Assembly: GCA_046290225.1 (NCBI GenBank)
Contig: JBKAGE010000082.1
Location: forward strand, 192,001-256,000
Reading direction: 5' to 3'
Origin: Bradymonadia bacterium
Lineage (GTDB): Bacteria > Myxococcota_A > Bradymonadia > UBA7976 > UBA1532
Length of the DNA stretch: 64,000 nt
The translations under genes were made by a program, and so were the position numbers. Under the pieces are notes generated by a model. It saw only the letters and a program-made list of their open reading frames with translations. It did no database searches and was not told where the DNA came from. Shown one piece after another: positions 1,437-23,246 of the stretch (its first letter is position 1; each line of letters begins with the position of its first letter).

Positions 1437-1661
1437 TTGAAGTACATTTCCGAGACCTCCGGTGTCAATCCGCGTGGAAATGATTGAGAAAAACCTGCGC
1501 CGTCGCCTGAAGATTCCCCGACGACCCCGTCGATGAAGTCACGCATGAGCACAGCCTTCGATCTTTTCGCCGCGGCGCTCTACCCGTGAGCGCTTTTTCC
1601 TTGCCAGCCAGCCTCAGAGGCTGACATAGCTGTGACCCCATGCTGCGTCTGTGGAGACGGA

Positions 1662-4541: not shown

Positions 4542-4913
4542 ATGGCGTTCCAGACGGAGTTCCCGTTCACCCTGCCCAAGGGCTACGTGGATCAGGACGG
4601 CAACCTGCATCGCGAAGGCGTGATGCGACTGGCCACCGCAAAAGACGAAATCGCACCTTTGCAGGACTACCGAGTTCAGCAGAACCGTGCGTACCTGGTC
4701 ATCATCTTGCTGTCTCGAGTCATCATCAAGCTCGGCAGCTTGAAATCAGTGAGTCCCAACACCATCGAGGGCCTGTTCTCTTCAGATCTGGCCTACCTGC
4801 AGGAGTTCTACCGGCGGGTCAACGAAGATGGTGGCGCGAAGCTCGAGACCACCTGTCCCGCCTGTGGGCATAAGTACGAGCTGGATCTGGGCACTGACAT
4901 GGGGGAATCCTGA
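4542..4913 (+). CDS. Tail assembly chaperone
   Basis: MAFQTEFPFTLPKGYVDQDG...GVMRLATAKDEI...DLAYLQEFYRRVN...CPACG, the typical eCIS chaperone. ATG at 4542 chosen over the TTG at 4380. Confidence 0.85.
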   Translation: MAFQTEFPFTLPKGYVDQDGNLHREGVMRLATAKDEIAPLQDYRVQQNRAYLVIILLSRVIIKLGSLKSVSPNTIEGLFSSDLAYLQEFYRRVNEDGGAKLETTCPACGHKYELDLGTDMGES

Positions 4914-6853: not shown

Positions 6854-7363
6854 ATGCGCAGAAGCAGGAGAAGTCGCGGCGGCAGCGGTGCTTCCGCTGG
6901 GAACAGCAGCGCGCCCACTCGAAACCCCGCCCTGGTCAGCGTTCAAAGCCGGCCCATGGGCAAGTTCCGCTTCAAGTTCGAGGTCGACGGCATCACCATG
7001 GCCCACTTTCAAAGCGTGACGGGGCTCGGCCACGAGATCGAGGTCCTCGAACAGCAAGAGGGCGGGGTCAACGAATACATGCACAAGCTCCCCGGCCAGG
7101 GGCGCTACTCCAACTTGGTGCTCAAGGTGGGCTGGGTCAGCACCCAGCTCGTCGAAGACTGGCACATGGGCTTCGCCCGCAACCCCAAAGGGGTTCAGCG
7201 CAAGACCGGCGCCCTCGTGCTCCTCGATGACGCGGGGCAAGAGGCAAAGCGCTGGGACTTCAAGGGCGCCTGGCCCGTGAAGTGGGAAGGCCCTGCCCCT
7301 GACACCAGCCAGAGCGCCATCGCGGTCGAGTCCATCGAGATCGCCTATGAGCAGCTGACCTGA
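6854..7363 (+). CDS. Second tail tube protein (gp19-like)
   Basis: FRFKFEVDG, QEGGVNEYMHKLPG, WPVKWEGP, AVESIEIAYE. Short basic N-terminal extension; alternative ATG at 6956. Confidence 0.9.
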   Translation: MRRSRRSRGGSGASAGNSSAPTRNPALVSVQSRPMGKFRFKFEVDGITMAHFQSVTGLGHEIEVLEQQEGGVNEYMHKLPGQGRYSNLVLKVGWVSTQLVEDWHMGFARNPKGVQRKTGALVLLDDAGQEAKRWDFKGAWPVKWEGPAPDTSQSAIAVESIEIAYEQLT

Positions 7364-7406: not shown

Positions 7407-10400
7407 ATGAGCGATTCTGGCATTGGGACGAGTGAAGGCACGTTGCGGGTCGGCGAGATTCTGCGCAGCCCCACGCCTGATCATGCCGACACCGGCCTGA
7501 TCTCGGCCATGACCGCCTTCTCGGGCGGCATCTCCACCCGACTCGAATCGTTCGGCATGGCCGCCGACACCGAGTCTGCGGGTGGCCTCGTGAATGATCT
7601 CGCCTCGCGCTGGGCTCTGCCCTCGGGCGCAGCCGCCTTCGAGGTCGTCGACGCTGACAGCTTCGACGACCTGCTGGTGGACTGGTCGGTCTCTGTAGAT
7701 GGCTACACCGATCTCATCTACGATCTGCCCCACTCCATCTATGTTGTCCCTGTCGATCCCGTAGAAGAGCCCACTGGCTTCCCGGCCCGCTCGGTGATGC
7801 CCCGCCGCACCGCAGCCCCGCGGCCTCAGCCGCCCCGTGGCGCCCTGGAGGCGGTAAAGGTGGCAGGCCGACGGCCCACCCCCTCGGCCCCTCGAGTGGT
7901 GAAGGAGCGCTGGAGAGCTACGGATGAAGCGGCCCCTGAGGGCCTGCTGAGCCCCTACCCTGCAGCCATGGGTCAGGCAGGTGCCATCGACAGCGCGCTG
8001 CTCCGCTTCCCCGATGCCCGGGCCGAGGTGCGTCAGGGCCAGCGACGGGCGGTGATCGTCGACAATGGGCCCAGCCCCCTCGCAGGTGCCGGGTGGTCTC
8101 CTCGAGCCTCCGGGACAGCACCAGCAGTGCGGGCAGCAGAGATGATCGCCGAGCGCAGCGCTCAGTTCGACCAGCTACAAACCCTCACGCCCCCCGCGGC
8201 GGCGGTGGGCTTCTGGCTGGTGGAGCCTGATGGCCCCACCACCCCAGGCGGCATCGAGCGGATGGCCACTGATCTGGCGGCAGAGCCCACAACCCGCGTG
8301 AGCGAGCTGGCCTATGACGCCCCGGTGATGACGGCTGTGCGCCCTCGAGCACCGATGGCGCAACAACACACCACGCGCCACCCTGGGCAATGGCAACGGA
8401 TCGGTGAGCGCGCAGTGACGCCGCTCCTCACCCGCCGCCCGCCCATCTCTGTACAGCCTGCTTCAGTGCAGCTTGCTTCAGGGCAATCCGCTTCAGGGCT
8501 GCCCGCCTCAGGGCTGCCCGCCTCAGTGCAGCAGGGCCCCTCTGCCACTGCGCCCGCTCAGGCCGGGCTTGCCGCTCAGCGCCCAACACTGAGCCCTGTG
8601 CTGCCACCGAGCCCCACGGCGCGTATGGGGCTGCCCGCCGATACACACAACGTCTCGGCTTCAGTACCCAGCACAGCAGTGAGTGCTGTGCCCCGGCTCA
8701 ACCCTGTGGCGCCGGCAGCGCTCTCTGCACCGCACCGGACATCTCCCATAGGCGCCAGGCGCGGTACCGCGATCAGTGATCGCATCGCCCCGCTCACCCG
8801 TCGGCCGTCCATGCCCGTCCGCCCGACGATGTCTTCCGCTGTGGCTCTGAGCGAGTCCGCCCTCGCAGCCCCTCAGGCATCGACCCCCTGGTGGTCCGAA
8901 GGCTGGCACGAGGCGCTCTCTGAAGAGCTGGTCAGCCCTCGGGCTGTCTCAGCGCCACAGGCTGCAGTCACACCAACTACAGTCACACCGGCCACAGCCT
9001 CTGCCATGGCCCCCCAGGCTCCACCGAGCGCCTCCACGAGCCCCTTGCAGCCGGTTCTTCAGCCAGCCCCCATGGCCGCCTCGGCGCTCAGTTCGATGAC
9101 GCGGAGCGCCTTTGTGCCCCGAGGGCTCAGCGGCGCGACGACCACGCGGCCTTCGATGCTGCCCATGGCCTCGGCAGAGCGCACCGCAGCATTCGCGCAG
9201 CCAGCAGCACGACGAGCAGTTGGCCAACCAGCTCACCTGAGCGCTGCGCCTCTCTCCCGCCTCACTTCACGGGGCGATACAGGCGTCTCTGAACTGTGGA
9301 CCGAGGCCCCGACGCCTGAGTTCTACCGTGCCCCCGCGTCGGCATCCCCGGCCTCTGCGGTGCAACACACCAACTCGACGTCGACCCCTGTGGCCCGACG
9401 TGCCTCAATGGCTCAAGCCACCGCTTCGCAACCTGGCACCTCGCAGCACAGCGCAGTCCGCCAGCAGGCCTTGACCGTAGCGAGCCAGCGCCCCATCTCG
9501 CGTAGCGCCGACAGAGGGCGTAAGGTTGCCGTATCGAGTTCGACGCCGGCAGTGACACCGAGCCTGACCTCGATCCGCGCCGTTGCCTCTGCAGCACATC
9601 GCGGTGAGTTCGTGCCTCAGCAGGCCCTTCAAGCCCAACAGCTTGCCGCCCTCGTAGAAGGGCAGGCCCTCGGCGGTCAGGTGGGCAGGCCCGCTTCGAG
9701 CCCCTGGCAGCGCCCAGGGTACGCACGGGCTGAGGGCACTCTGATCCGGGCAACGTCTGTGACCGGGCCTCAAGAGGCACACGCCATCACCCAGGCGCAT
9801 GCAGGCAACACCGGTCGTACGGTGATGCCCAGCCAGACTGTGGGCACACGCAACCCGACCATCAGCTCAGCGGCCGACGCTGTGGCCGTCCGTACTGCAG
9901 CCCCCTTCATGCCCGCCTCACTGGCAGCGACGACACCGGCAGGGGGCAGCACCTCTGAGGCGACTCTGCCGGGGCGAGCTCGACAATCTATGGGGATGAT
10001 CTCCATCGACCCGTCGACCACCAGCGCTCCGATGGGGACCGCAGTCCAGATGCCCGAGATCTTCCGCGGCCTGGGCAGCGTGCACCAGCAACGCTTGGAG
10101 ACGTTCCTCGCCCAAGTGGGGCTCGCACCCATGCGCGAGGAGGCCAACCTCTCATTGGGTCAGGTGGCTGAGATCACTGAGGGCCTGCATCTGAGCGACG
10201 ACATGCTCGGTGGAGGCACTGGCGAGCTGGTTCAGCCCATCGCCGAAGCCACCACCGACCCCTCGGAGCCAGGGGCGGCCCAACCTCAGCAGCGCAGAGC
10301 GCGTCAACGCACAGAAGCCGCCACCCAAACAGCGGTCACCCGAGCCACTGAGCGCCTCAGCGCCACCATCGCGGCCCACACCGCTCAGCTTGCCGCCAGC

Positions 10401-12056
10401 GCTCAAGGCACCGCATGGGACCGTGCCGCAGTGGCGAGCCAGCCTTCTACGGCCCTCGCGCGGCTCGAGGCCAGCCTGCGTCAGAGCACAGGTGCATCTC
10501 AAGGGGCGTGGTTGTCGCGCATCGTCACCCTCACCCGGCGTCTGTCGGTGATGGGCCTGAGCCCGAAACAAGCGGCCCCGATGGTGAGCAGCCAGCTGGC
10601 CCTGAGCCCGGCCCTGAACGCCGGGCTGCCCACGGCGATCACCGAGCTGGTGCAGCACGTGGCCCAAGCAAACGCAGCTGGCATGTCTGCACCTCGAGAT
10701 CGCGCCCTCGACGCGCTGCCTGCCGCCCTGCAGCGGCTCGTGCGCGAGGTCGAGACCCCCAGCTCTGGTCTGGCCTTCGACGCCCCCTCCACCGAGCTGG
10801 TGCAGGGTGAGCGCGACACATCAACGCCTCTCGGGGTGACCTCTGCGAGCGCCGAAGCCGGGCCAGCGGCGTCCAAGGCCGCCACCCGTACGCTCCAAGC
10901 GCTCAGCGCCATCGAGCGGACCATGGCCCGCCAAGCTCGACGGACAATCAGCCCCCCTGTCGCCCGGGCCATCGCCGGGGGCGAGGGCAGAGGGGCCGAC
11001 AGCACGGTGGGTCGAGTGGCTGCGCTGCTCGGTGAGGCCTTTGGCACCACAGGCGACGTCGCCGGCGAGGTGGTCGCTCAACGTGCGCCTCGCGACCCCC
11101 TGACGACGCGCACAAGCACCACCAGCGCAGGCGCTGCCTCCACTCGAGCGACTGTCCGCGCCAGCAAGGGCAGCAGTGACCCCCTCGTGCTCGACCTGTC
11201 CCAGCTCGGCGGAGCAGGCGCCATCGGCAGCCGCTCGGCGAGCTTCGCCCCGAGCCACAGCGATGCACTCAGTGATGTCGCCCCTGGCAAGCTCGGGGAT
11301 CGCGTCGACAGCTTCAGTGGCTTCTCACCCGCCTTTGCCGCCAGCCCTGGCGCCCTGCTCCGTGGCAGCACCCCCGGTGAGTCCACCTTCCTGCACGCGC
11401 AGAGCCTCGTGGAGCAGAAGAGCAGAAGCATCGCCGGTGAGACCATGGTGGGTGAGGCCAACCTCGAGCGCGCCCTCGTGGTGTACGAGCAGGCCCAAGC
11501 CGCACAAGGCAACGTCACCACCCCCGTGCCCCACGCGCCGAGCCCCACTCGCGGCGCCCCTGGCGCCCTGGCTCAAATCTTCGGCGGTGACGCCGGCAGC
11601 AGCAGCGGCTTCGCCGGCCAGCTGCCCGCAGCCCTCTCGGGCAACAGCGTCAGCTTCAGCGGGAGCGGTTCGAGCAAGGACGCCCCCGCCTTCACCGAGC
11701 TGCCCGGGGGCCTCAACATGCCCCCAGTTTTGCTCGGCGGCCTCTTTGGTGATCGAGGCCCCAGCATCGGCAGCGGTGATCCCGCCATGCCCCCGGCGCC
11801 CCCGTCGCGGATCATGGTGGACACCGGACACGCATCTCAACCTTCACCGGAGTCTGTCCTTCGGTCCACCCCCGGCGAGCGGCCCAACAGCAAGGCCGAG
11901 ACCAGCGAAGAGTCCCGGCACCGGCTCGCCCGGAACCAAGTGGATGATCAGCTCAGCGACGAAGAGGTCGACAAGATCGCCGAGCAGGTCATCTACACGC
12001 TCAAGCGCGAGGTGGAGATGGACAACACGCGTTATGGAGACGACGAATGGGACTGA
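7407..12056 (+). CDS. Very long Ala/Pro/Ser-rich low-complexity protein; candidate tape-measure/ruler
   Basis: 1549-aa ORF between tube and LysM genes. Mostly disorder-like composition, ending in a helical DEEVDKIAEQVIYTLKREVEMD motif; overlaps the next gene. Confidence 0.6.
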   Translation: MSDSGIGTSEGTLRVGEILRSPTPDHADTGLISAMTAFSGGISTRLESFGMAADTESAGGLVNDLASRWALPSGAAAFEVVDADSFDDLLVDWSVSVDGYTDLIYDLPHSIYVVPVDPVEEPTGFPARSVMPRRTAAPRPQPPRGALEAVKVAGRRPTPSAPRVVKERWRATDEAAPEGLLSPYPAAMGQAGAIDSALLRFPDARAEVRQGQRRAVIVDNGPSPLAGAGWSPRASGTAPAVRAAEMIAERSAQFDQLQTLTPPAAAVGFWLVEPDGPTTPGGIERMATDLAAEPTTRVSELAYDAPVMTAVRPRAPMAQQHTTRHPGQWQRIGERAVTPLLTRRPPISVQPASVQLASGQSASGLPASGLPASVQQGPSATAPAQAGLAAQRPTLSPVLPPSPTARMGLPADTHNVSASVPSTAVSAVPRLNPVAPAALSAPHRTSPIGARRGTAISDRIAPLTRRPSMPVRPTMSSAVALSESALAAPQASTPWWSEGWHEALSEELVSPRAVSAPQAAVTPTTVTPATASAMAPQAPPSASTSPLQPVLQPAPMAASALSSMTRSAFVPRGLSGATTTRPSMLPMASAERTAAFAQPAARRAVGQPAHLSAAPLSRLTSRGDTGVSELWTEAPTPEFYRAPASASPASAVQHTNSTSTPVARRASMAQATASQPGTSQHSAVRQQALTVASQRPISRSADRGRKVAVSSSTPAVTPSLTSIRAVASAAHRGEFVPQQALQAQQLAALVEGQALGGQVGRPASSPWQRPGYARAEGTLIRATSVTGPQEAHAITQAHAGNTGRTVMPSQTVGTRNPTISSAADAVAVRTAAPFMPASLAATTPAGGSTSEATLPGRARQSMGMISIDPSTTSAPMGTAVQMPEIFRGLGSVHQQRLETFLAQVGLAPMREEANLSLGQVAEITEGLHLSDDMLGGGTGELVQPIAEATTDPSEPGAAQPQQRRARQRTEAATQTAVTRATERLSATIAAHTAQLAASAQGTAWDRAAVASQPSTALARLEASLRQSTGASQGAWLSRIVTLTRRLSVMGLSPKQAAPMVSSQLALSPALNAGLPTAITELVQHVAQANAAGMSAPRDRALDALPAALQRLVREVETPSSGLAFDAPSTELVQGERDTSTPLGVTSASAEAGPAASKAATRTLQALSAIERTMARQARRTISPPVARAIAGGEGRGADSTVGRVAALLGEAFGTTGDVAGEVVAQRAPRDPLTTRTSTTSAGAASTRATVRASKGSSDPLVLDLSQLGGAGAIGSRSASFAPSHSDALSDVAPGKLGDRVDSFSGFSPAFAASPGALLRGSTPGESTFLHAQSLVEQKSRSIAGETMVGEANLERALVVYEQAQAAQGNVTTPVPHAPSPTRGAPGALAQIFGGDAGSSSGFAGQLPAALSGNSVSFSGSGSSKDAPAFTELPGGLNMPPVLLGGLFGDRGPSIGSGDPAMPPAPPSRIMVDTGHASQPSPESVLRSTPGERPNSKAETSEESRHRLARNQVDDQLSDEEVDKIAEQVIYTLKREVEMDNTRYGDDEWD
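8460..8534 (+). repeat. In-frame 15-bp tandem repeat, 5 copies (ASVQL/ASGQS/ASGLP/ASGLP/ASVQQ)
   Basis: gcttcagtgcagctt gcttcagggcaatcc gcttcagggctgccc gcctcagggctgccc gcctcagtgcagcag. Confidence 0.8.
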
Positions 12057-12715
12057 TCAAGCAGGCGATCCAGAGCATGGTCCCCGGGACCAACAAGCTC
12101 AGCATCACCCCCCTCGACGGGCGGCGGGCGCTCCAGCCTGTGGAGGCCCTGTTCAACCCCAAAGAGTACAGCATCCAGAAGAGCGTGCCCTGGAACCCCC
12201 AGGCCGCCGCGGGTCTCGACGCCCCCGACATGCAGTTCACCACCGGTCAGGGCGAGACTTTGAGCCTCGAGCTGTTCTTCGACACCTATGAGAAGGGGTC
12301 GAACGTCAAGGCCCACACCGACGCGCTGCACAACCTCGCCCTCATCGACCCCACCTTGCACCGGCCGCCGCTGGTCATGGCCTCGTGGGGCAAGCTGAGG
12401 TTCCAGGGTGTCATCGAGTCGATCAGCCACCGGTTCACCATGTTCCTCGAAGACGGCACCCCCGTGCGGGCCACCTGCACCGTGAGCCTGCGGGAAGCCC
12501 GCACCGCCACCCAGCAGAACCAGGAGGCCCCTCGGGAGAGCCCTGATCACGCCAAGCTGCACGCCGTGCGTCGTGGCGAGACGCTGCAGGCCATCGCCGC
12601 CGAGGAATACGAAGATCCGTCCGAGTGGCGGCGCATCGCCGACGCCAACGGCATCGATGATCCGCTGCGCCTCGAGCCCGGCACCAAGCTGATCATCCCG
12701 CCGATCCTGAGCTGA
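12047..12715 (+). CDS. CIS tube-initiator protein with C-terminal LysM domain (Afp7-like)
   Basis: LFNPKEY, LELFFDT, HRPP..WG, MFLEDGTPVRA; LysM HAVRRGETLQAIA...WRRIADANGIDDP...PGTKLIIP. Confidence 0.9.
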   Translation: MGLIKQAIQSMVPGTNKLSITPLDGRRALQPVEALFNPKEYSIQKSVPWNPQAAAGLDAPDMQFTTGQGETLSLELFFDTYEKGSNVKAHTDALHNLALIDPTLHRPPLVMASWGKLRFQGVIESISHRFTMFLEDGTPVRATCTVSLREARTATQQNQEAPRESPDHAKLHAVRRGETLQAIAAEEYEDPSEWRRIADANGIDDPLRLEPGTKLIIPPILS

Positions 12716-12776: not shown

Positions 12777-13871
12777 ATGGAAACCTCGAACCGGGTCCCC
12801 GACTATAAAATCAAGGTCAACGGCTCCGAGCTGCCACAGGAAGATCGGGTCAACGTGCAGGAGATCTTCGTCGATCTCAGGCGACAGGCCCCGGCCAGCG
12901 TGGAGATTCAGCTCAACAACCACGAAGGCACCTACGACGAGCGGGAAGATCTCGCCCCCGGTGCCCAGATCAGCGTGGAGCTCGGCTATCAGGACGACAG
13001 CACCACTCAGGTCTTCGAGGGCGAGATCATCGGCACTCAGGTGAAGGCCAAGCAGAACGGCCCGCGGGTCTTCTTGATCCGGGCCTTCGACTACAGCCAC
13101 CGCCTGACCCGAGGGCGCAAGCAGCGCAACTTCAACAGCCAGAAGTTCAGCGATCTCGTCACCACCCTCGCCCAAGAGGTGGGCCTCACCCCCGACGTGG
13201 AAGACACCCAGTTCAACCGCGAGTACGTGGCCCAGCACAACCAGACCAACCTCGACTTTGTGCGGGGCATGGCCGGCTGGCTCGACTTCGACCTGTGCAT
13301 TCGGCACCTCGAAGATCCGAAGAAGCTGCGGTTCAAGCCACCAGAGCTCTCCGCCGCCGAGGCGGTGACGGTGGTCTACGAGAACCCCAACCTGCAGAAC
13401 AACGAGCTGCACCTGAAGAAGTTCGATGGTCGGCAGTCCCTCGCCCGCGTGGTGAGCCACGTCACCGTCCGAGGCTGGAACCCCGGGGGCAAGGCCGCCT
13501 ACATCGGCCGCGCGGGGCCCGACAAGCTCTACGACGAAATGTCGGGCGATTCTTCGGCGGTGCAGATGGTGCTCGACAAGTGGGGCGAGACCGAGCGGCA
13601 GATCGTCGACTGCAAGGTCTTCAGTCAGGAAGAGGCCGACAAGATCGCCGAGTGCAAGCTCAACGAGTACGCCCGCACCTTCATACGCGTCGACATGGAA
13701 GTGCAGGGCAGCACGCTCCCCTACCCCGGCTGCACCGTGAAGGCAGAGCGGGTGGGCCCGCGGTACGACGGCAAGTACTTCGTCGACTCGGTCCACCACA
13801 TCTTCACCTCGAAGGTGGGGGCCAGCCACGGCTACACCACCCGCTTCATCGCCAGCCGCTGCGCCTGGTGA
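12777..13871 (+). CDS. Phage late control D / gp27-like baseplate hub (VgrG N-terminal part only)
   Basis: ELGY...VFEGEI, AFDYSHRLTRGRK, QHNQTNLDF, VTVRGWNP, GKYFVDSVHH. Ends after 364 aa with no gp5 OB-fold or beta-helix. Confidence 0.85.
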   Translation: METSNRVPDYKIKVNGSELPQEDRVNVQEIFVDLRRQAPASVEIQLNNHEGTYDEREDLAPGAQISVELGYQDDSTTQVFEGEIIGTQVKAKQNGPRVFLIRAFDYSHRLTRGRKQRNFNSQKFSDLVTTLAQEVGLTPDVEDTQFNREYVAQHNQTNLDFVRGMAGWLDFDLCIRHLEDPKKLRFKPPELSAAEAVTVVYENPNLQNNELHLKKFDGRQSLARVVSHVTVRGWNPGGKAAYIGRAGPDKLYDEMSGDSSAVQMVLDKWGETERQIVDCKVFSQEEADKIAECKLNEYARTFIRVDMEVQGSTLPYPGCTVKAERVGPRYDGKYFVDSVHHIFTSKVGASHGYTTRFIASRCAW

Positions 13872-13909
13872 TCGGGCAACAGTGAGGCTCGAGCCGGGAG
13901 GGGCCCATC

Positions 13910-14566
13910 ATGGATGAGTCGAAGCTCGTCGACTGGTACGACATCATCGAGGCCATCGCCAATGGCCGCCTCGACGGTCACACCTGCCCGAATTGCGGCC
14001 ACCAGGGCCTTGAGATCAGCCACGAGAACTATCAGATGAGCGCCCGGTGCCCGAACTGCAACGAGGGGTTCTCTGGTCGTGGCGGTGGCCGGGACGACGC
14101 TTATGATCGGGAGGCCGCCGAGTTGATGGCGCGGCAGTCTCGGCGGCGGCAACCTTCGGTCACGGGACGCACCGTCGGCGTCACCGATCCCAACCTGTGC
14201 CCTCCGGTCCCTGGCGATGGCACCGTGAGCCCCGGGCTCGCGGCCATCCCCGCCCGCCCCTCGGCCCCGAGCCGACCCCCGCCGGTGAGGGCCAACGCCA
14301 CCCTCTACGAAGATCCGCCGGGCACCAAAAAACCCGAGCGCCGCGGAGAGCCCTGGGCGTGGCAGCTGCCCCACCAGGGGGGCGAACCCGACCCGGACGC
14401 GCTGGCCCTGTGGATGCCCCTCGTGGAGTCGATTCACAACGGCAGGCGCACGGGATTAACCTGCCCCTTCTGTAGCGAGCCGCTGCATGATATCCATCAT
14501 CAGCCACCCCACCTGCGCATCGTCTGTCGCCAGTGCGGCGAAGCCTTCGAGGGCAGGATCGGGTGA
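13910..14566 (+). CDS. Hypothetical protein with two homologous CxxC-CxxC zinc-ribbon modules
   Basis: WYDIIEAIANGRLDGHTCPNC...CPNCNEGFSGR and WMPLVESIHNGRRTGLTCPFC...CRQCGEAFEGR separated by a Pro-rich linker; GGGAGG RBS upstream. Confidence 0.7.
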   Translation: MDESKLVDWYDIIEAIANGRLDGHTCPNCGHQGLEISHENYQMSARCPNCNEGFSGRGGGRDDAYDREAAELMARQSRRRQPSVTGRTVGVTDPNLCPPVPGDGTVSPGLAAIPARPSAPSRPPPVRANATLYEDPPGTKKPERRGEPWAWQLPHQGGEPDPDALALWMPLVESIHNGRRTGLTCPFCSEPLHDIHHQPPHLRIVCRQCGEAFEGRIG

Positions 14567-14674
14567 GCCCGAGGGCTGCTCGCGCATGCAGCCCGAGAGG
14601 GCGCTGGCGTACTGGGTGCGAGCGCCCTGGGCGCCGTGCGGCAGTGAACATCACATCGTGAGGGTGATCATCCC

Positions 14675-15082
14675 GTGAGCACAGATCGGAGCTTCCTCGG
14701 CCGCGGCATCGCTTTTCCCATGAAGATCGATGGCGCCGGCGGACTCGCCCTCTCTTCCTACGAAGAGAACATCGAAGAGTGCATCCGCATCATCCTCGGC
14801 ACCGCCCCTGGCGAGCGGGTCTACCGCCTCGACTTCGGCTGCCGCATCCATGATCTGCTCTTCGCCCCGAACAACGCCAACACGCGCAACCTCGCCTCGT
14901 TCTATGTGAGAGAGGCCCTCATGAAGTGGGAGCCCCGCATCCGGGACATCGAGGTCGAGGCCGGGGCCGATCCGCTCAAGCCCAACACGCTGCGCATCGA
15001 GATCAGCTACGCCGTTCGGGCCACGAACTCCCACTACAACCTGGTTTACCCCTTCTACCTGCGTCGCGAGGATGACCTATGA
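14675..15082 (+). CDS. Baseplate gp25/gpW-like protein
   Basis: FLGRGIAFP, IRIILGTAPGERV..DFGC, WEPRI, NLVYPFY. Confidence 0.93.
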   Translation: MSTDRSFLGRGIAFPMKIDGAGGLALSSYEENIEECIRIILGTAPGERVYRLDFGCRIHDLLFAPNNANTRNLASFYVREALMKWEPRIRDIEVEAGADPLKPNTLRIEISYAVRATNSHYNLVYPFYLRREDDL

Positions 15083-18000
15083 TCCCGATCCCCAACCTTG
15101 ATGATCGCACCCACCGGGAGATCGTCGAGGAGGCGTTGAAGCTGATCCCGCAGTATTGCCCCGAGTGGACCAACTTCAACCCGTCTGATCCGGGCATCAC
15201 CCTCATCGAGCTGTTCGCCTGGATGACCGAGATGGCCATCTATCGGCTCAACAAGGTCACCGACAAGAACTTCATCGCCTTCCTCAACCTGATGGGGGTG
15301 AGGCTGCAGGCGCCGCAGCCGGCCCACGCGCTACTGCAGTTCCAGCTCGTGAAGGGCGGCCCGCCCACGTGGATCAGGCAGGGCTTCCAGATCAGCACTG
15401 TGCCCGACGGCAAGGACGATCCGGTCATCTTCGAGGTGGAGAGCGATCTGCTCGTCAGCGACAACACCCTCGAGAAGGTCTTCACCCAGGTGAGCGACCT
15501 CTACGAGGACCAGACCCCCTTCATCGACGGCCGCCGTCGCGAGGGCTTCGAGGTCTTCGGGGGTCACAACCACATCGAGCGCAGCCTCTACCTCGGTGAT
15601 CTGCGCTTCGAGCAGCTCAACGAAGACGCCACCCTCATCATCAAGATCGACAGCCCGGCGAACCACGCCCTCGTCGATCAGCTCGAGTGGGAGTATTGGA
15701 ACGGCCGCCGCTGGCGTGAGCTGAGCCGCTCCCTGAGCGAGACTGAGGAGGGCGCCATCGCCTTCGAGGACATCGATCAGATCGAAGCCACCGACGTGAA
15801 CGGCGTCGGCGTGCCCTGGATCCGAGGCCGCCTGATCGACACCCCTCAGAACACTGATCAGACCCTCATCGAGACCGTCGTCGCCCGCATCGAGCTCAGC
15901 GGCGAGGGCCTCAAGCCCGAGAAGGCCTATGTGGCCCACGTACACGACAACAGCACCGTGTACATCACCGTGGACGACAGCCGCACCTGGGCCCCCTTCG
16001 GCAAAGAGCCCAAGACCGAGCACACCCTCTACCTGATGCCTGGGGCCTTCCCCCAGGAGCCGGGCTCGGTGATCCGCCTCGAGGTGCAGCTCGCCGACCG
16101 CAAGACCCACGACGCCCCGGAGCCCAGCGATGATCTCAGCCTGCGCTGGGAGTACTGGAACGGCAAGAAGTGGGCCCCGCTGTGCCTGAAAGCCACCCCC
16201 GAGGGCGCCGAGAGCGCCGTCGACGTCGACTTTGTCGACGGCACCGAGGCCTTCACCCACTCCGGGGAGATCAAGTTCAAGCGCCCCGCCGATCTCGCCA
16301 GCACCGACGTGCAGGGCGAAGAGGGCACCTGGATCCGCGTACGCATCGAGGCCGGCGACTACGGCGAGGCCGGGCAGTACGAGCTCGACGGCGACCGCTG
16401 GCTCTGGCGCAACGAGCGCCCCCTGCGGCCCCCGTGGGTGAAGCAGATGGTGTTCCGGTACACCGAGCGCGATCGGTTCGTCGATCATGTGCTCACCTAC
16501 AACGACTTCGCCTACTTCGACCACTCGATGACCGCCCGGACCCCCCTCAAGGTGTTCCAAGCCTTCGAGCCCTCAGTAGAAGACAGCCCCACGCTCTATC
16601 TGGGCTTCAAGCAGGCCATGCCCAACGAGCCTGGGCAGATCTACTTCCAGATGACCGAGAACACTGCGGTACAGCGCGATCGCCGCCACGCGGAGTATCT
16701 CTCGCAGTACTACGCCGAGCGCGATCAGGTCCTCGACGCCGAGCAGCGGGTCATCTGGGAGTACTGGAACGGCCTGGAGTGGGTGAGCCTGAGCGCTGAA
16801 GACGGCACCCGGGCCTTCACCGAGAGCGGGTTCCTGCAGTTCGTGGGCCCCGAAGACTGGAAGCGCAGCAAGCGCTTCGGCGAAGCTCTGTGCTGGCTGA
16901 GGGCTCGCCTCGAGATGGGGGGTTATCACCAGATGCCCCGCATCAGCCACGTGCTGCTCAACACCGTGAGCGCCAAGAACCACCTGAGCTTGAAGAACGA
17001 GGTCCTCGGCGCCAGCGACGGCACCCCCAACCAGACCTTCAAGTTCGCCCAGGGTCCCGTGCTCGAAGGTCAGGAGATCCGGGTCCGCGAGAAAGAGCTG
17101 CCCGACGGCCCCGAGAAAGACGCCCTGATGAAGCAGGGCGAAGATGTGGTCGAGCCCGCAGGCAAGAGCGGCTTCTGGGTGAAGTGGACCGAGGTGGAGA
17201 GCTTCTACGACAGCACCGGTCGTAGCCGGCACTACATCATCAACCGCACCGACGGCACCGTGCAGTTCGGCGACGGCAACAAGGGCATGATCCCGCCCTC
17301 GGGGAACGCCAACGTCGTGGCCCGACGCTACCGCATCGGCGGCGGCGTGCGGGGCAATGTCACCGCCCAGACCGTCACCGCCATGCGCCAGAGCCTCCCG
17401 TACATCGAGGCGGTGGGTAACCCCTTCCCCGCCGCCGGAGGCAGCGACCAGGAGACCGTCGAAGAGGCCAAGGCCCGCGGGCCTCACCTCATCAAGAGCC
17501 GGAACCGCGCCGTCACCGCCGAAGACTTCGAGTGGCTCACCCTGCAGGCCTCGAACGGCGTCGCCCGGGCCAAGTGCCTCACCACCATCGGCCGTGAGGG
17601 CGAGATCACCATCGTGGTGGTGCCCAAGCAGGACGAGCGGGATCGCGATCTCAAGGTGAAGCTCAGCCCCAGCGCCGAGCTGTTGCGCCGGGTGAAGAAC
17701 TACATCGACGAGCGGCGCCTGCTCACCACCGTGGTCAAAATCTCGCCGCCGAAGTACGTCGAGGTGAGCGTCAAGATCGAGGTGATCCGCAAGGTGGCCA
17801 GCGGCGACAAGCAGCTCAAGAACGCCATCGAGCAGCGGCTGCGTACGTTCCTGCACCCCCTCGTGGGCAGCCGGAGTGGCGGTGGGTGGCCTTTTGGGCG
17901 CAACGTGCTCAAGCTCGACCTGTATCACGTCATCGAAGACATCCCCGGGGTCGATCTCGTCGATCGCATCCGGCTCTTCGACGAAGACCGCCGCGAAGAG

Positions 18001-18087
18001 GTGGAGCAGATCAAGGTGGCCGCCAACCAGCTCGTGCACCTCGTCGACGTCACCGTGGTCGAGAAGCCCCGTGAAGAGTTCCTGTGA
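15079..18087 (+). CDS. Large baseplate wedge protein (gpJ-like, Afp11/12-type)
   Basis: PNLDDRT, CPEWTNFNPSDPGITLIELFAW, FGDGNKGMIPP, YRIGGGVRGN, RAVTAEDFE, GWPFGR. Confidence 0.92.
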   Translation: MIPIPNLDDRTHREIVEEALKLIPQYCPEWTNFNPSDPGITLIELFAWMTEMAIYRLNKVTDKNFIAFLNLMGVRLQAPQPAHALLQFQLVKGGPPTWIRQGFQISTVPDGKDDPVIFEVESDLLVSDNTLEKVFTQVSDLYEDQTPFIDGRRREGFEVFGGHNHIERSLYLGDLRFEQLNEDATLIIKIDSPANHALVDQLEWEYWNGRRWRELSRSLSETEEGAIAFEDIDQIEATDVNGVGVPWIRGRLIDTPQNTDQTLIETVVARIELSGEGLKPEKAYVAHVHDNSTVYITVDDSRTWAPFGKEPKTEHTLYLMPGAFPQEPGSVIRLEVQLADRKTHDAPEPSDDLSLRWEYWNGKKWAPLCLKATPEGAESAVDVDFVDGTEAFTHSGEIKFKRPADLASTDVQGEEGTWIRVRIEAGDYGEAGQYELDGDRWLWRNERPLRPPWVKQMVFRYTERDRFVDHVLTYNDFAYFDHSMTARTPLKVFQAFEPSVEDSPTLYLGFKQAMPNEPGQIYFQMTENTAVQRDRRHAEYLSQYYAERDQVLDAEQRVIWEYWNGLEWVSLSAEDGTRAFTESGFLQFVGPEDWKRSKRFGEALCWLRARLEMGGYHQMPRISHVLLNTVSAKNHLSLKNEVLGASDGTPNQTFKFAQGPVLEGQEIRVREKELPDGPEKDALMKQGEDVVEPAGKSGFWVKWTEVESFYDSTGRSRHYIINRTDGTVQFGDGNKGMIPPSGNANVVARRYRIGGGVRGNVTAQTVTAMRQSLPYIEAVGNPFPAAGGSDQETVEEAKARGPHLIKSRNRAVTAEDFEWLTLQASNGVARAKCLTTIGREGEITIVVVPKQDERDRDLKVKLSPSAELLRRVKNYIDERRLLTTVVKISPPKYVEVSVKIEVIRKVASGDKQLKNAIEQRLRTFLHPLVGSRSGGGWPFGRNVLKLDLYHVIEDIPGVDLVDRIRLFDEDRREEVEQIKVAANQLVHLVDVTVVEKPREEFL

Positions 18088-18155: not shown

Positions 18156-19130
18156 GTGGCTGATCCGCGACCGAGAGAGCGACAGACAGTCCGTATGCCC
18201 GAGGTGGTGGGCATCATGCTGGAGAACGCCCAGCTGATGCTCACCAACGAGCACTTCGATCTGCGCCGGGTGAAGCTGCGGTACGAAGAGGCCTATCGCC
18301 CCGAAGACGAGGTGCTCAAGCAGCACCCGCAGCCCGGGGCCGTGGTGGCCACCGACGAGCCCGTAGAACTGGTCGTCAGCCGCCGCAGCCTGGTGAACCA
18401 CCTGCCTCAGGTCTATCAGAAGTCCGACAGCACCGGTCGGCACATGCTCAGAGATTTTCTGTGGGTCTTCGACCACATCTATGCCGATCTCGAGCGTACC
18501 CTCAACGGCCTGCACCGGTACTTCGACCCCCTCGAAGCCCCTGGAGAGTTTCTCCCCTGGCTGGCGAGCTGGGTGGCCCTCACCATCAACCAGGGCTGGG
18601 ACGACGCCAAGAAGCGCAAGCTGATCCGCGAGGCCATCGGCATCTACGGCTACCGGGGCACCGTGCGGGGCCTCAAGCTCTTCTTGTCGATCTTTACCGA
18701 CGTCGAGCCCGACATCCACGAGAACAAGTGGCCCTACAAGGGCTTCCGCGTCGGCAAGGTGAGGGTGGGCGTCGACTCGGTGGTGATCCCTCAGGTGAAC
18801 CTGTCCCACTGCTTCATGGTGGAGATCCCCGCCGAATATCGGCACGTCGACGACAACGAGATCATCAAGATCCACGACATCATTCGCATGGAGAAGCCCT
18901 CCCACACCGCCTACTGCCTGACCTTCAAGGCCGCCCCCAAGGAAGATCTGCTGCAGCCCTTCCGCATCGGCGTCGGCCGCCTGGGCCTTCGGGAGTCCGG
19001 GGTCATGGGCAGCCGCCCGAGCGAAGCGGTCATGGAGGCCTTCCAGGAGAGAGACACCCTCGGCGAGGGTGCTACCAGCGAGCCAGCGACCGGCGACTCC
19101 TCGGGAGATGCCGAAGACACAACGGAGTGA
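18156..19130 (+). CDS. PASTA domain fused to P2 gpI-like phage tail/baseplate protein
   Basis: N-terminal VRMPEVVG...A..ML...VLKQHPQPGAVV...VELVVS (PASTA), then HLPQVY, YFDP..APGEFLPWLASWV, RGTVRGLK, EKPSHT (gpI). Confidence 0.85.
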   Translation: MADPRPRERQTVRMPEVVGIMLENAQLMLTNEHFDLRRVKLRYEEAYRPEDEVLKQHPQPGAVVATDEPVELVVSRRSLVNHLPQVYQKSDSTGRHMLRDFLWVFDHIYADLERTLNGLHRYFDPLEAPGEFLPWLASWVALTINQGWDDAKKRKLIREAIGIYGYRGTVRGLKLFLSIFTDVEPDIHENKWPYKGFRVGKVRVGVDSVVIPQVNLSHCFMVEIPAEYRHVDDNEIIKIHDIIRMEKPSHTAYCLTFKAAPKEDLLQPFRIGVGRLGLRESGVMGSRPSEAVMEAFQERDTLGEGATSEPATGDSSGDAEDTTE

Positions 19131-19133
19131 TCC

Positions 19134-20696
19134 ATGGGGTCCGGTGAGAGCTTTAAGCGCATCAACTTCTTCAAGGGCTTCCTGGCCACCGAAGAAGACT
19201 TCAACGATGCCGAGAAATACCACCTCGAGAAGCGGCACCTGCACAACCAGGCCTTTCACGCCCCTGGCGTCGTTGCGCACCACGGCGACGGCCTGAGGGT
19301 CACCAGCCGCGGTCGCGGTGATCTCTCCATCGAGATCGGTGCTGGCTATGCCATCGATGGCTTCGGTCGGGACATCTACGTGCCCGACAAGCAGATCAAG
19401 ACCATCAGCGCCGGTGACTTCAAGCTGCCCCAGACCATCTATGTGGTGGTGAAGTACCTCGAGGAGATGACCGACTTCATCCGGTACAAGGAAGTGCCCG
19501 ACTACCAGGGTCACCGCCGGATCCAGGAAGGCTTCAAGGTCGAGTTCACCAACGTCGAGCCCGACGTGAACCACGAGATCGAGCTCGCCCGCATCTACCT
19601 CGAAAAGGGCGCCAAGCGGATCATCGACGCCAAGGATCCGAACAAGCCCGAGGCCAACGAGATCGATCTGCGCTTCGTGCGCTACGCCGGCACCGTGGGC
19701 ATGTTCTTGAACAGCACGATCAGGGTCCGCCTGCGCGAGGCCATCGCGTTCCAGAAGCGGGTGTTCTCACACCTCTCCCGGGTGAAGAAGATCATCAGCG
19801 CCCAAGACGCCTTCCACGCGCTGATCACCCTGGACATGCTCACGCTCACGGCCCACATCGGCCACGACAACATCTGGGAGCTGCTCATCGAGCTCGCCAA
19901 GCTCGAGTGGGACGTGGTGAACGAGGCCGAGAGCCGGGTGCCCGATCTGAGCGCCCGCCGCGAGTTCACCAGTTTCAAGAAGAACATCGAGATCATGTAC
20001 AACTTCGCCGCGGAGAAGCGGCGGACCGACGAAGGCCTCGACAACGTCATCACCTACATGATGAAGACCTGCGAGAGCATCGAGATGCTGCTCGACCAGA
20101 TGCGCTCTTCGGAGATCGAGGTGAAGGCCATGGCCGACGCCCCGCAGGAGAGCAAGATCACCGAGTACATCGAGGGCGGCATCACCTTCGAGGAGCTCAA
20201 GGTCTACTCCAAAGAGTTCACCGAGAGCCTCATCGTCGACGGTCGCGAGTGGGTGCTTGTGGACATGATCGACATCCGCGACGAGCAGAACGAGAACGAT
20301 CACGAGTTCCGCATCAAAGAGGCCAAGGACACGTACCGCAGCCGCCAGAAGCTGCGGTACCCCGACGGCACCGTCGTCGAAGACCAGGGCATCGCCCACG
20401 AGGGCGGCTACTCAGAGTTCAAGGTCAAGAACGTCACTCCCCACCAGGATCTGGTCATGATCCGCCGCATGGATTACGTGCGGGCCGACTACCAGGCCGA
20501 GATTCAGGTGAACGGCGCCCGTATGGACCGGATCATGGACTGCGCCGGGGCCGACAAGAAGTTCCGGTGGCGCAACTGGCCCTACGTGATCCCCGCCCAG
20601 CACATCAGCTCCACGGTGATCAGCATCAAGCAGGTGATGCTCACCGCCGACCGGGACATCAACATGTTCCACTACTGGTTCTACCAGCCCAAGTGA
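19134..20696 (+). CDS. Fibre/baseplate-attachment protein with helical middle and C-terminal beta-sandwich domain
   Basis: N-terminal RINFFKG..TEEDF..AEKYH...PGVV..GLRV...GYAIDGFGRDIYV typical of CIS fibre-attachment domains. C-terminal RRMD..A.IQVNG...RW...IP...YWFY resembles glycan-binding accessory domains. Confidence 0.65.
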   Translation: MGSGESFKRINFFKGFLATEEDFNDAEKYHLEKRHLHNQAFHAPGVVAHHGDGLRVTSRGRGDLSIEIGAGYAIDGFGRDIYVPDKQIKTISAGDFKLPQTIYVVVKYLEEMTDFIRYKEVPDYQGHRRIQEGFKVEFTNVEPDVNHEIELARIYLEKGAKRIIDAKDPNKPEANEIDLRFVRYAGTVGMFLNSTIRVRLREAIAFQKRVFSHLSRVKKIISAQDAFHALITLDMLTLTAHIGHDNIWELLIELAKLEWDVVNEAESRVPDLSARREFTSFKKNIEIMYNFAAEKRRTDEGLDNVITYMMKTCESIEMLLDQMRSSEIEVKAMADAPQESKITEYIEGGITFEELKVYSKEFTESLIVDGREWVLVDMIDIRDEQNENDHEFRIKEAKDTYRSRQKLRYPDGTVVEDQGIAHEGGYSEFKVKNVTPHQDLVMIRRMDYVRADYQAEIQVNGARMDRIMDCAGADKKFRWRNWPYVIPAQHISSTVISIKQVMLTADRDINMFHYWFYQPK

Positions 20697-20764
20697 CGCC
20701 TCGCAGGCGGTGTGGTGCAGCGCTGCTCCACACTGTTACCGCGCGCAGCGCCACAGCATGCGGA

Positions 20765-20836: not shown

Positions 20837-21619
20837 ATGATGTTCCGTGATCCACGCAAAGTCGTCCAAGATCGGATCAACATGCGGATCCAGAACGCCC
20901 AGATGCGGGCCAAGTCCCAAGTGCGTGGCGCTGGAGTCCGTGTCATCAGCGCAGGTGAGCGCAAGGCAAAGCAGGCCACCGACAACGCCAAAGCGAAAGC
21001 CAAAGGCAAAGGCCAAAAAGCCGCCCCAAACCAGGCGCCTCAGCAGGCGACTGCAGAAAAGAAGAAGTTCAGTTTGTGGCCCTTCGGTAAGAACAAGCAA
21101 GACGCAGCTGGCCAGGCGCCCGCCTGCCACAGCTGTGGCCAGGCCATCGACCCTTCATGGGAGCTGTGCCCTTACTGCGGCACCAGCCTCGCCGAGGCCC
21201 CGGCCCCTCAAGCGCAAATGCAGGCAGCCCCCGTACCGGGTGCGCCGGTCCCTGCCATGCCCCAGATGACCGGGAACAAGACCCAGGCCATCAACCTCGA
21301 CGAGCTCGCCGGTCCCCAGAAGATGGTGGTGGGCTGGCTGGTCATCATGGAGGGCAACGAGAAGGGCCGTGACTTCAGGCTCTACGAGGGCCAGAACAGC
21401 ATCGGCGCCGCCGCTGACTGCAACATCGTGGTCAACGACGAGTACCTCTCGGCTCACCACGCCAGCATCCGATTCGACGATGGGCGCTACGAGTTGATCG
21501 ACAAAGACTCCACCAACGGGTGCTTCCTCAACGAGAAGCGCATCTCCCGCGAGGAGCTCGTCGACAACGACACCATCCGGCTGGGACGCACCCATCTCCG
21601 CTTCAAGGCGATCTATTGA
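20837..21619 (+). CDS. Zinc-ribbon + FHA domain protein
   Basis: CHSC...CPYCG; GWLVIMEG..GRDFRL..G.NSIG...DEYLSAHHASI...DKDSTNGCFLN...DTIRLG. Confidence 0.88.
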   Translation: MMFRDPRKVVQDRINMRIQNAQMRAKSQVRGAGVRVISAGERKAKQATDNAKAKAKGKGQKAAPNQAPQQATAEKKKFSLWPFGKNKQDAAGQAPACHSCGQAIDPSWELCPYCGTSLAEAPAPQAQMQAAPVPGAPVPAMPQMTGNKTQAINLDELAGPQKMVVGWLVIMEGNEKGRDFRLYEGQNSIGAAADCNIVVNDEYLSAHHASIRFDDGRYELIDKDSTNGCFLNEKRISREELVDNDTIRLGRTHLRFKAIY

Positions 21620-21683: not shown

Positions 21684-23246
21684 ATGCGATCCATCATGTC
21701 TGGTCTGCGCGCAGGCCTTCTCTGCAGCGCCCCACTGCTCATCACCACGCTGATCGTCTCGGGCCTGATCATCACCGGCCTCGGCACCCCGGCCTACAGC
21801 CAGGGCAAGCAGCTCGCCAGCACCACCCAGCTGCGTCTCGACGCGGTGGACACCAGCAAGGGCAAAAAGGGCGAGCTGGTGCTCTTCGGCTCGTTCCTCA
21901 ACGAGTTTGGTCAGTCGGTGCCGGCGCTGAAGTCGGAGTACTGGACGATCCAGCTCGACGGCGAGCCCCTGGAGCTCGACCCCGAGTCCCTCACGGTGAA
22001 GTCGCTCAAGGACAGCGACGAGGGCGTCTACGTGGTGCTTGTGGCCATGGCCTGCTGCAACATGATGGCCGAGGAAGAGCAGTTCGCCGCCATCAAGAAG
22101 GGCATCGAGGAGATCCTCAACGGCCTGGGCAGCAAGGACCAGTCGGCGGTGGTGCTCTATCAAGAGGGCGTGCTCAAGACCAGCAGCCTCAACCCCTCTC
22201 ACGAAGAGGCGGTGGTCTGGCTCGGTCAGAAGGGCGAGGCCGACGGCACCGGGCCTCAGTTCTTCAGCGCCATCGAGCAGGCCCTGAAGTTCTTCCCGCC
22301 AGAGTTCGGCACCCTCAACTCGAACCGCCACATCATCGTCATCAGCGATGGCGACGATGTCGATCGCATCACCGATCGTTCAAAGACCCGCGAGAAGCTC
22401 AAGGCCCTCAAGACCAACGCCAACGCCAAGAAGGTGAAGGTGCACTCCATCGGCCTGGTCTTCGAGGGGCAGCAATCGGAGACCCTGGCCAATCTGCGCA
22501 CCCTCTCCGGTGGTACTGGCGGTGTCTATCGCGAGTCGAAGGACTTCACCCGCACCCGAGATCACCTCTCGGCCCTCAAGAGCCAGCTGCTCGAGCAGAA
22601 CGTGCTCTACGTGAAGACCAACGACTTCGAAGGCGAGAAGGACATCACCTACACCCTCTCGGTGAAGCACCCCAGCTCCGGCAAGGTGTTCAACGCCCTG
22701 GCCCCAGTCGTCGAGTACACCCCCGAGGTCGAGACGAACCTGTGGCGGAACATCCTGCTCATCAGCGGTGGCGTCGTGGGCCTCGGCCTCTTCGGCTGGC
22801 TGGGCATGATCCTTGTGCGCCGCATGGGCAACCGCGACACCGGCGAGGTCTTCGTCGACGCCGGCGAGGAAACCCGGGAGTGCGAGCAGTGCGGCAACAC
22901 CATCCCCGTAGACTGGATGGTCTGTAAATACTGCGAGGCCCTGCCCCACAAGGGCCGCCTCACGGTCATCAGCACGGGCGATCTCAACGGCCGGGTGTGG
23001 TTCATCAAAGAGTCTCTGGTGAACATCGGCCGCTCCGATGGGAACCACATCATGATCCCCGACACCACGGTGTCGAAGCGCCACGCGGGTATCAAGGTGG
23101 ACAATGGCCGCTTCGAGCTGGCGGACTTCGGCAGCACCTCGGGGGTGCTGGTGAACGGGCAACGCATCACCAAACGCTTCCTCAAAGACGGCGATGCGAT
23201 CCACGTGGGCGGCATCGAGCTCGAATTCAAGCTCAAGAAGAGCTGA
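21684..23246 (+). CDS. Membrane protein: exported VWA domain, TM helix, cytoplasmic zinc ribbon + FHA domain
   Basis: Hydrophobic N-terminus; IIVISDG and VHSIGL...TGG (VWA); TM ILLISGGVVGLGLFGWLGMILV; CEQC..CKYC; IGRS...VSKRHA...DFGSTSGVLVNG (FHA). Confidence 0.85.
   Translation: MRSIMSGLRAGLLCSAPLLITTLIVSGLIITGLGTPAYSQGKQLASTTQLRLDAVDTSKGKKGELVLFGSFLNEFGQSVPALKSEYWTIQLDGEPLELDPESLTVKSLKDSDEGVYVVLVAMACCNMMAEEEQFAAIKKGIEEILNGLGSKDQSAVVLYQEGVLKTSSLNPSHEEAVVWLGQKGEADGTGPQFFSAIEQALKFFPPEFGTLNSNRHIIVISDGDDVDRITDRSKTREKLKALKTNANAKKVKVHSIGLVFEGQQSETLANLRTLSGGTGGVYRESKDFTRTRDHLSALKSQLLEQNVLYVKTNDFEGEKDITYTLSVKHPSSGKVFNALAPVVEYTPEVETNLWRNILLISGGVVGLGLFGWLGMILVRRMGNRDTGEVFVDAGEETRECEQCGNTIPVDWMVCKYCEALPHKGRLTVISTGDLNGRVWFIKESLVNIGRSDGNHIMIPDTTVSKRHAGIKVDNGRFELADFGSTSGVLVNGQRITKRFLKDGDAIHVGGIELEFKLKKS

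Follow-up and report, generated by a model that had tools for sequence, protein, structure and literature searches.

A Predicted Zinc-Ribbon Gene in the Spike Slot Marks a Clade of Myxococcota Contractile Injection Systems Whose Spikes Are Probably Encoded Elsewhere

The contractile injection system (CIS) encoded in a Bradymonadia genome is probably an eCIS-type tail with its spike genes elsewhere in the genome, and the gene that occupies its spike slot, which encodes two predicted zinc ribbons (the Zn gene), likely contributes a helper of baseplate-wedge assembly and not a tip. The window, which is the whole stretch of 64,000 nucleotides analyzed here (G000:C82:192001-256000), comes from a source assembly (G000) of 8.58 Mb that is 99.4% complete.

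The CIS locus in the window

The contractile-tail locus spans window positions 1632-24529, and its genes and the parts of the Zn gene are in the following order.

1632..2249, + strand: Pvc16/Afp16-like terminator (family match)
2338..3498, + strand: sheath protein 1 (family match)
3858..4313, + strand: tube protein 1 (gp19; family match)
4545..4913, + strand: tail assembly chaperone-like protein (phrog_508)
5088..6851, + strand: sheath protein 2 (family match)
6854..7363, + strand: tube protein 2 (gp19; family match)
7407..12056, + strand: 1549-aa low-complexity ORF with a conserved C terminus (no family match)
12047..12715, + strand: CIS tube initiator with LysM (Afp7-like; family match)
12777..13871, + strand: gp27/gpD-like hub without the gp5 half (Phage_GPD, VgrG_rel), the sole Phage_GPD gene of the genome
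13910..14566, + strand: tandem helix plus four-Cys (predicted zinc-ribbon) protein, 218 aa, CIS clade marker
13910..14089, + strand: module 1 of this protein, residues 1-60, nearer to the single-module family and followed by a conserved GRDD helix
14147..14377, + strand: Pro-rich linker, length-variable and predicted to be disordered, ending in a conserved W-x-W-x-L
14387..14563, + strand: module 2, residues 160-218, belonging to the single clade of C-modules (support 97)
14675..15082, + strand: gp25 baseplate wedge/sheath initiator (PF04965)
15079..18087, + strand: baseplate J (gp6-like), with a clade-specific middle region (family match and comparison)
18156..19130, + strand: PASTA and Tail_P2_I (gp7-like) protein (family match)
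19134..20696, + strand: Cis13-like baseplate-binding N terminus in the fiber position (NF053767 positions 3-144, below the cut-off)
20837..21619, + strand: zinc-ribbon and FHA protein, downstream in many clade loci (family match, conservation)
21684..23246, + strand: vWA, zinc-ribbon, and FHA protein with a hydrophobic segment (family match)
23342..24529, + strand: TPR and PEGA protein, kept downstream within the family (family match, conservation)

The dbeCIS core, consisting of the tube (Afp1/5), the sheath (Afp2/3/4), Afp7, Afp9, Afp11, and Afp16, is present in one locus. Of the Afp8 spike (gp27 plus gp5), the locus encodes the gp27 half only, and the gp5 genes are located on contig C64. 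The hub ORF (12777-13871) ends in a TGA stop after 364 aa; it matches Phage_GPD, and its match to VgrG_rel is confined to positions 5-349 of that 547-position model, which indicates that it has no gp5 half and agrees with the preliminary description of this DNA, in which the hub was said to stop at 364 aa without a spike. No match to gp5, PAAR, or Rhs was found in the window locus or in 22 related loci. No Afp15 AAA+ ATPase was present among the 22 ORFs scanned in the first half of the window, and no RNA holder is listed for the locus. The locus differs from an eCIS in lacking an in-locus spike and from a T6SS in its sheath and in VgrG.

The 1549-aa ORF (7407-12056) is rich in Ala, Ser, and Pro, with conservation limited to its C terminus, and the gap that it fills measures ~0.6-6 kb in related loci and has a tape-measure-like position. 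The PASTA domain on the gp7-like protein and the two zinc-ribbon/FHA genes (18156-23246) suggest cell-wall contact and phosphorylation control, and the PASTA, FHA, and vWA genes are possibly compatible with a cell-anchored mode of the CIS. Beyond the locus, the minus strand of the window (36082-48537) encodes a 4151-aa surface protein with DUF11, TSP3 repeats, and a C-terminal OmpA domain.

Sequence and predicted structure of the Zn protein

The interval of 13872-14674, which was originally described as one feature, is the whole space between the hub and gp25; the gene itself (13910-14566) lies inside it and is the only ORF there with homologs. It has a GGAGG-type site upstream and a GC3 of 0.82. 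The earlier account of one gene with two homologous modules of a common motif and a Pro-rich linker was borne out in full, since the two modules self-align at a score of 109, with 2000 shuffles reaching at most 46, and 22% of linker residues 80-156 are Pro. All eight Cys of the tandem protein are invariant across 14 homologs. In a wider alignment of 52 rows, Cys 1, 3, and 4 of the putative zinc ribbon are invariant and Cys 2 is >90% conserved. In the AlphaFold2 model, each module consists of a helix and a three-strand ribbon (pLDDT ~85-94), and the linker is of low confidence. The net charge is zero or negative in 15/15 modules counted. Phylogenetic analysis of only 59 columns placed the C-modules in one clade (support 97) and grouped the N-modules weakly (support 59), which indicates one duplication within the window's family.

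A profile search retrieved 95 representatives of the module, mostly single-module proteins of 60-90 aa, and the common form of the family is a 63-aa single module. The nearest ESM Atlas clusters are unnamed Myxococcota clusters. The profile and structure searches proposed earlier thus yielded a family of relatives and no specific family or fold match: the Pfam, NCBIfam, and PHROG matches of the Zn protein, among which PAAR, DUF4150, and DUF4280 are absent, are all under the curated cut-offs, Foldseek returned nothing at an E value of 0.001 or better (best, 0.07), and VIA returned nothing at Z ≥5 (best, 3.6). The model shows a helix and a three-strand ribbon where a PAAR protein would have a conical three-hairpin fold, and its fold-search rows are only weak; no CIS tip fold is listed in the weak Foldseek and VIA rows, which leaves one possible. 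A complex prediction with the hub, gp25, and Zn module 1 from 26-row alignments scored 0.00, and its controls likewise did not fold. A search for longer fused forms of the module found none and also missed the known tandem proteins.

The CxxC...CxxC three-strand ribbon is shared with Elf1/ELOF1, Rpb9/TFIIS, L37ae, and NrdR. However, none of the matches to Elf1-type ribbons (Foldseek E of 0.07, VIA Z of ≤3.6, and HMM E of ≥0.008) covers the acidic helix or the NGR motif, which indicates a generic fold likeness. A match in genome G246 (E of 8e-4, inside a 617-aa frame) was likewise treated as a generic ribbon. A phage origin of the Zn gene was rejected, with no relative found in viral contigs or phage records.

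Distribution and genomic position of the Zn gene

The Zn gene keeps its position in other loci, a point on which the preliminary description had asked for a comparison. Among 22 related loci, 19 have it immediately preceding gp25 and the remaining three stop at contig ends; the same adjacency holds in 20/20 of the class-level loci fetched. The hub is 46-97 nt upstream in 17 of the 22 loci, and in most family loci the Zn gene overlaps or abuts gp25. Five Ruminococcus/Clostridia loci (L021-L024, L032), which matched only ~30 residues of the CxxC motif, were left out.

In a phylum sample of 401 genomes, the Zn gene was found in 96, with one gene per genome, and the tandem form was confined to the window's own family. 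When the genomes are ranked by their match to the window's gp25, all 96 Zn-positive ones fall within the top 101, a cut-off that was set after the data were seen, and the Zn gene was found in 0/65 genomes with weaker gp25 matches and in 0/235 genomes without a gp25 match. The Zn gene thus marks a single CIS clade of the Myxococcota, with one copy in each genome that carries it. Of the five top-gp25 genomes without it, three differ from the clade in their baseplate; the other two (G356 and G448, of which only the latter was in the slot table below) appear to belong to the same baseplate clade, in which the gene is thus dispensable in two genomes.

In 86/96 genomes, the Zn gene precedes gp25 on the same strand at a distance of 2-208 nt; the other 10 have the two genes on different contigs. 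Eight of these ten relocated loci were fetched, and none has a CIS gene nearby; in two CIS loci from such genomes, the hub is followed directly by gp25. Homologs away from CIS loci, named earlier as a refuting observation, thus do occur; however, their genomes keep the CIS, which points to a trans-acting CIS factor and not to a local insertion. A local insertion or deletion at the slot was also rejected because the same arrangement occurs across many families.

The Zn gene heads the gp25-gp6-gp7 operon and remains with gp25 in loci that split. In small-genome lineages (L059, L061-L062, L064-L067, L069-L071, and L090), a Zn-gp25-gp6-gp7-Cis13-like operon is split from the sheath, tube, and hub. 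Several clade loci without FHA genes beside the baseplate still keep the Zn gene.

A census of the slot was based on 71 hand-picked loci with gp25, 49 of which have the hub upstream. Of these 49 slots, 28 contain the Zn gene only, 18 contain neither the Zn gene nor gp5, 2 contain gp5 only, and 1 (L089) contains both. The two gp5-only slots belong to other CIS types, and 16 of the 18 slots with neither gene have gaps of ≤371 nt. The slot is empty in CIS loci lacking the Zn gene as well, which indicates that an empty spike slot is common among Myxococcota CIS with or without it. The Zn gene does not replace the spike: the proposal that a zinc-ribbon protein stands there instead of spike and PAAR is correct for position only, given the 18/49 slots with neither gene and the one with both. 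In L089 (10394-13418), a gp5 pair sits in the slot beside the Zn gene, and one of the pair has a Gly/Ala-rich extension (761 aa) that apparently continues in another frame. A locus of a different CIS type (L086:7902-9276) has gp5 and a partial DUF2169 gene within the spike slot.

An orphan spike cassette in the source genome and its relatives

The genome-wide search for gp5 that had been suggested detected three Phage_base_V genes in G000, all within one orphan cassette on another contig.

G000:C64:33977-44379 (L004, L005): orphan spike cassette

Its genes encode, in order, a 211-aa protein, gp5-A (343 aa), gp5-B (362 aa), DUF2169 (408 aa), gp5-C (1837 aa), and a 292-aa protein. One half of VgrG_rel is matched by the hub and the other by gp5-A/B/C, and G000 has one hub gene and one sheath/tube set. 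In this 99.4% complete genome, no VipB match (T6SS sheath), no gp27-gp5 fused VgrG, and no stand-alone PAAR (PAAR, DUF4150, and DUF4280, in searches one of which had no positive control) was found. Both gp5-A and gp5-B have weak DUF6484 matches. The 211-aa first gene has no family match and is kept beside the gp5-A/B pair in most relatives, and contigs C14, C2, and C19 have further distant Rhs/YD-repeat matches without a gp5 N terminus.

The gp5-C protein comprises an OB fold, a beta-helix, a PAAR-like region, DUF6531, Rhs repeats and core, and a variable tip. With its YD repeats, Rhs-associated core, and variable C terminus, it has the makeup of an Rhs polymorphic toxin. Its tip in G000 has a weak Cytotoxic match (E of 0.0024, under the cut-off), and the 292-aa gene downstream, which has no family match, is likely an immunity gene. 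The PAAR-like region (residues ~347-560) has an H, an H, and a C that are invariant in 14 rows, and PF05488 matches it at an E value of 0.0017 in 2/14 gp5-C proteins. The probability from hhalign was 16%, the Atlas score was 0.82 (a lead only), the AlphaFold2 model of the tip region had a pLDDT of 35, and a PDB sequence search with the tip-region alignment gave 0 hits. The PAAR assignment of this domain is therefore weak; presumably, the domain resembles the Rhs-linked PAAR subtypes.

All 15 family genomes examined have PF04717 genes, each at least three, and the A-B-DUF2169 arrangement is present in 11/11 relatives fetched (20 regions from 11 genomes), with gp5-C being either next in line or orphaned. 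In G002, one A/B pair accompanies four C genes that have near-identical N termini and different tips. In a quick tree, the A, B, and C proteins fell into one clade each (with support of 93, 99, and 99, respectively), and each clade divides into the same two sub-lineages. From a common anchor, the beta-helix ends at ~327-329 residues in A, 330-334 in B, and 340-350 in C; seven cassette proteins that the anchor motif missed were left out of the tree and this comparison. The A gene in L051 and the C gene in L052 are split across frames. Three of 13 C tips are over the cut-off and match EndoU, YwqJ deaminase, and Endonuclea_NS_2. A full VipB is present in 10 of 15 cassette genomes; VipB is matched weakly in 1 and not at all in the other 4. 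The lone-PAAR profile matched 0/5 cassette-family genomes in a search for which no positive genome served as a control with the same tool. G123, a 100%-complete family genome without a CIS, has no PF04717 gene.

Spike and tip genes in other families

PF04717 genes were also found in 17/17 Zn-positive genomes of other families, 15 of which have exactly one gp5 gene, located away from the CIS. Of six control genomes without the Zn gene, five have no gp5 gene at all. A lone PAAR gene is present at a third site in 5/5 single-gp5 genomes tested. The lone gp5 genes (L113-L128; 262-285 aa, one per genome) lie mostly amid unrelated housekeeping genes, and that of L114 is followed by DUF2169. The lone PAAR genes (L133-L137), at a third chromosomal site, are Cys/His-rich and encode 106-108 aa. 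In Zn-negative CIS genomes (L129-L131), short gp5 genes are paired in tandem off-locus, possibly as a two-chain version.

Interpretation

The C64 cassette very probably supplies the spike of the CIS, because a gp5-only protein requires a hub that is encoded separately, and one such hub is present in G000. We infer this tie from gene co-occurrence in kin, and hence in nonindependent genomes. Among the possibilities raised in the preliminary description, spikes supplied in trans from orphan spike-effector loci gained support from the C64 cassette, from PF04717 in all of the family genomes, and from A-B-DUF2169 in all of the relatives fetched, whereas a nonpuncturing device is unlikely, given the spike genes found in 15/15 genomes of the family and 17/17 Zn-positive genomes of other families.

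A trimeric spike bears one PAAR. For Cis8/Cis10, a single PAAR per trimeric spike is stated in an excerpt of PMC8894136. In the cassette, C alone would run on into a PAAR-like tip, and for this reason a heterotrimer is favored, with gp5-A, gp5-B, and gp5-C intertwined 1:1:1 as one beta-helix spike on the hub trimer, an arrangement that we regard as moderately likely and that would give one tip and one Rhs cage per spike. DUF2169 may chaperone the tip of C, as TvpA does (PMC13373197, in part). The Rhs cage would bring a nucleic-acid toxin into microbial targets, and the extra orphan C genes may be interchangeable nuclease or deaminase warheads against other microbes.

The main rival for the roles of gp5-A and gp5-B is suggested by the Tvp systems, which are the closest analogue of the cassette. 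In this rival, the final spike is a gp5-C homotrimer, and A and B act either as pre-complex chaperones like TvpC or as alternative spikes that are themselves homotrimeric. According to excerpts of PMC13373197, TvpC is an OB-fold and beta-prism protein without gp27 that is encoded beside DUF2169 and exchanged for VgrG, a layout that gp5-A and gp5-B share in addition to their DUF6484 matches. However, C itself includes the tip-like domain, and no free PAAR was found that a TvpC could hold. Where a Tvp system has one TvpC, the cassette has two distinct paralogues, both conserved and of matched length, and a spike built as a C homotrimer would bear three tips and as many Rhs cages. The rival is on these grounds unlikely, although it deserves weight.

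Concerning the Zn protein, we tentatively propose, at slightly below even confidence, that its acidic helix and zinc-ribbon module attaches, in the cytoplasm and while the particle is being assembled, to a protein of the wedge or of sheath initiation, with the tandem form bridging two such sites. Such an assembly factor is favored because the gene is coupled to gp25, remains in the wedge operon where loci are split, and encodes neutral to acidic modules. Alternatively, the protein may be a trans-acting regulator of CIS expression or firing, possibly in the downstream FHA/Ser-Thr phosphorylation module, with the spike again supplied in trans. The gene is kept in single copy even off the operon (10/96 genomes, with no CIS genes near the eight loci fetched), two zinc-ribbon/FHA genes come after the baseplate genes, and the nearest folds are the Elf1, Rpb9, and NrdR ribbons, only at Z <4. 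Dispensability in G356 and G448 and relocation in 10/96 genomes fit a regulator as well as an assembly factor. However, the overlap or close junction with gp25 in most family loci, the retention beside gp25 upon locus splitting, and the retention in several clade loci without FHA genes next to the baseplate count against a regulator, and the neutral or negative charge of 15/15 modules disfavors nucleic-acid binding. A regulatory role is thus doubtful.

A new tip, spike plug, or injected cargo is improbable; the earlier proposal had been a novel Zn-binding tip, adaptor, or cargo, of which an adaptor may still apply. The Zn gene does occupy the spike slot in 28/49 loci with the hub and gp25, and its tandem modules could, speculatively, bridge C3 and C6 symmetry. 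However, the slots with neither gene (18/49), its coexistence with in-slot gp5 genes in L089, and its location on another contig in 10/96 genomes speak against a tip; Zn-positive genomes also have gp5 and PAAR elsewhere, the predicted fold is a small helix and ribbon and neither a cone nor a beta-helix, and the protein has neither a variable toxin part nor an immunity partner. The weakest reading, a cassette that serves a T6SS or other machine and a CIS that is spike-less or nonpuncturing, is very improbable: although a full VipB is found in 10/15 cassette genomes, DUF2169 and PAAR-Rhs typify T6SSs (PMC8651086 and PMC13373197, in part), and Myxococcota OB-fold/DUF2169/PAAR clusters were interpreted as T6SS-related in an excerpt of PMC13392464, G000 has neither a VipB match nor a gp27-gp5 fusion, four more cassette genomes have no VipB match, the separate hub required by gp5-only proteins is supplied by the CIS only, and the CIS-free G123 has no PF04717 gene.

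Taken further, the eCIS-type tail with off-locus spike genes may represent a "dispersed" Myxococcota CIS, with body, spike, and tip at separate sites, an obligate A:B:C heterotrimer, and the Zn protein as a core factor, an extension to which we give an even chance. One chain of ~1800 aa would then be spike, tip, Rhs cage, and toxin, swapped from a library of orphan C genes, and the zinc-ribbon protein would be a core factor that was doubled in the heterotrimer lineage.

Comparison with known systems

The comparisons with published systems draw on excerpts of the cited papers. The locus resembles an eCIS-type tail whose Rhs warheads are in the style of a T6SS. It shares the tube, sheath, Afp7-LysM, gp25, baseplate J, and Afp16 with dbeCIS lineage II, which has a split Afp8 (Chen et al. 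2019, PMC6899500) and likewise has separate gp27 hub and gp5 genes, and "split loci" over two genomic places are described in the same paper. However, gp27 and gp5 are two ORFs of one locus in that lineage, whereas gp5 is off-locus and triplicated here. In addition, eCIS VgrG homologs are stated there to have no C-terminal extension, whereas one gp5 copy here has an Rhs-toxin extension of ~1500 aa.

With T6SS Tvp classes II/III (Monlezun et al. 2026, PMC13373197), the cassette shares DUF2169 (TvpA), gp27-less OB-fold and beta-prism proteins, and a PAAR-type effector. Unlike the Tvp systems, G000 has no VgrG, T6SS, or separate PAAR gene that was found, the cassette has two short gp5 paralogues instead of one TvpC and a tip-like domain fused to gp5, and the launcher is in our inference an eCIS-type tail. 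The heterotrimeric VgrG of Vibrio cholerae and the Aeromonas T6SS (PMC8668125) is also a mixed trimer with an extension on some chains only. However, its chains are gp27-gp5 fusions with a separate PAAR, whereas three dedicated gp5-only clades are found here, which would make the stoichiometry structural; the heterotrimer requirement in PMC8668125 is attributed to effector loading. The Rhs cage and polymorphic toxin of PAAR-Rhs effectors, and likely their downstream immunity gene, are shared with the cassette.

The PLTS-like/eCIS clusters in marine Myxococcota MAGs (PMC11937823), with highly expressed tube genes, may be the same or a sister clade; the terms VgrG, PAAR, baseplate, and zinc do not occur in the main text of that paper. 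Further context is given in excerpts of PMC8651086, PMC12210884, PMC8894136, and PMC12923769. In a literature search whose scope ended short of supplements and subscription papers, neither the Zn module nor the three-gp5 cassette was found described, and no paper on Myxococcota contractile injection with FHA was found. The Zn protein is an undescribed clade marker, and its role in the CIS is putative.

Significance

The clade marked by the Zn gene makes up approximately a quarter of the Myxococcota genomes sampled (96/401), and its 63-aa module offers a clean marker gene and a compact knock-out target. The main interest lies in the off-locus spike system to which the Zn gene leads. Surveys that search for eCIS by locus demand or presuppose a spike within the locus and look for effectors close by, and they would therefore miss the spike and toxins of this clade. 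The Rhs-toxin extension of gp5-C would run counter to the published statement that eCIS spikes have no extension and, if true, the fusion of gp5, tip, and Rhs toxin with two tip-less partners would be a new way to seat one tip on a three-fold spike. The cassette would be a testable weapon for uncultured predatory Myxococcota.
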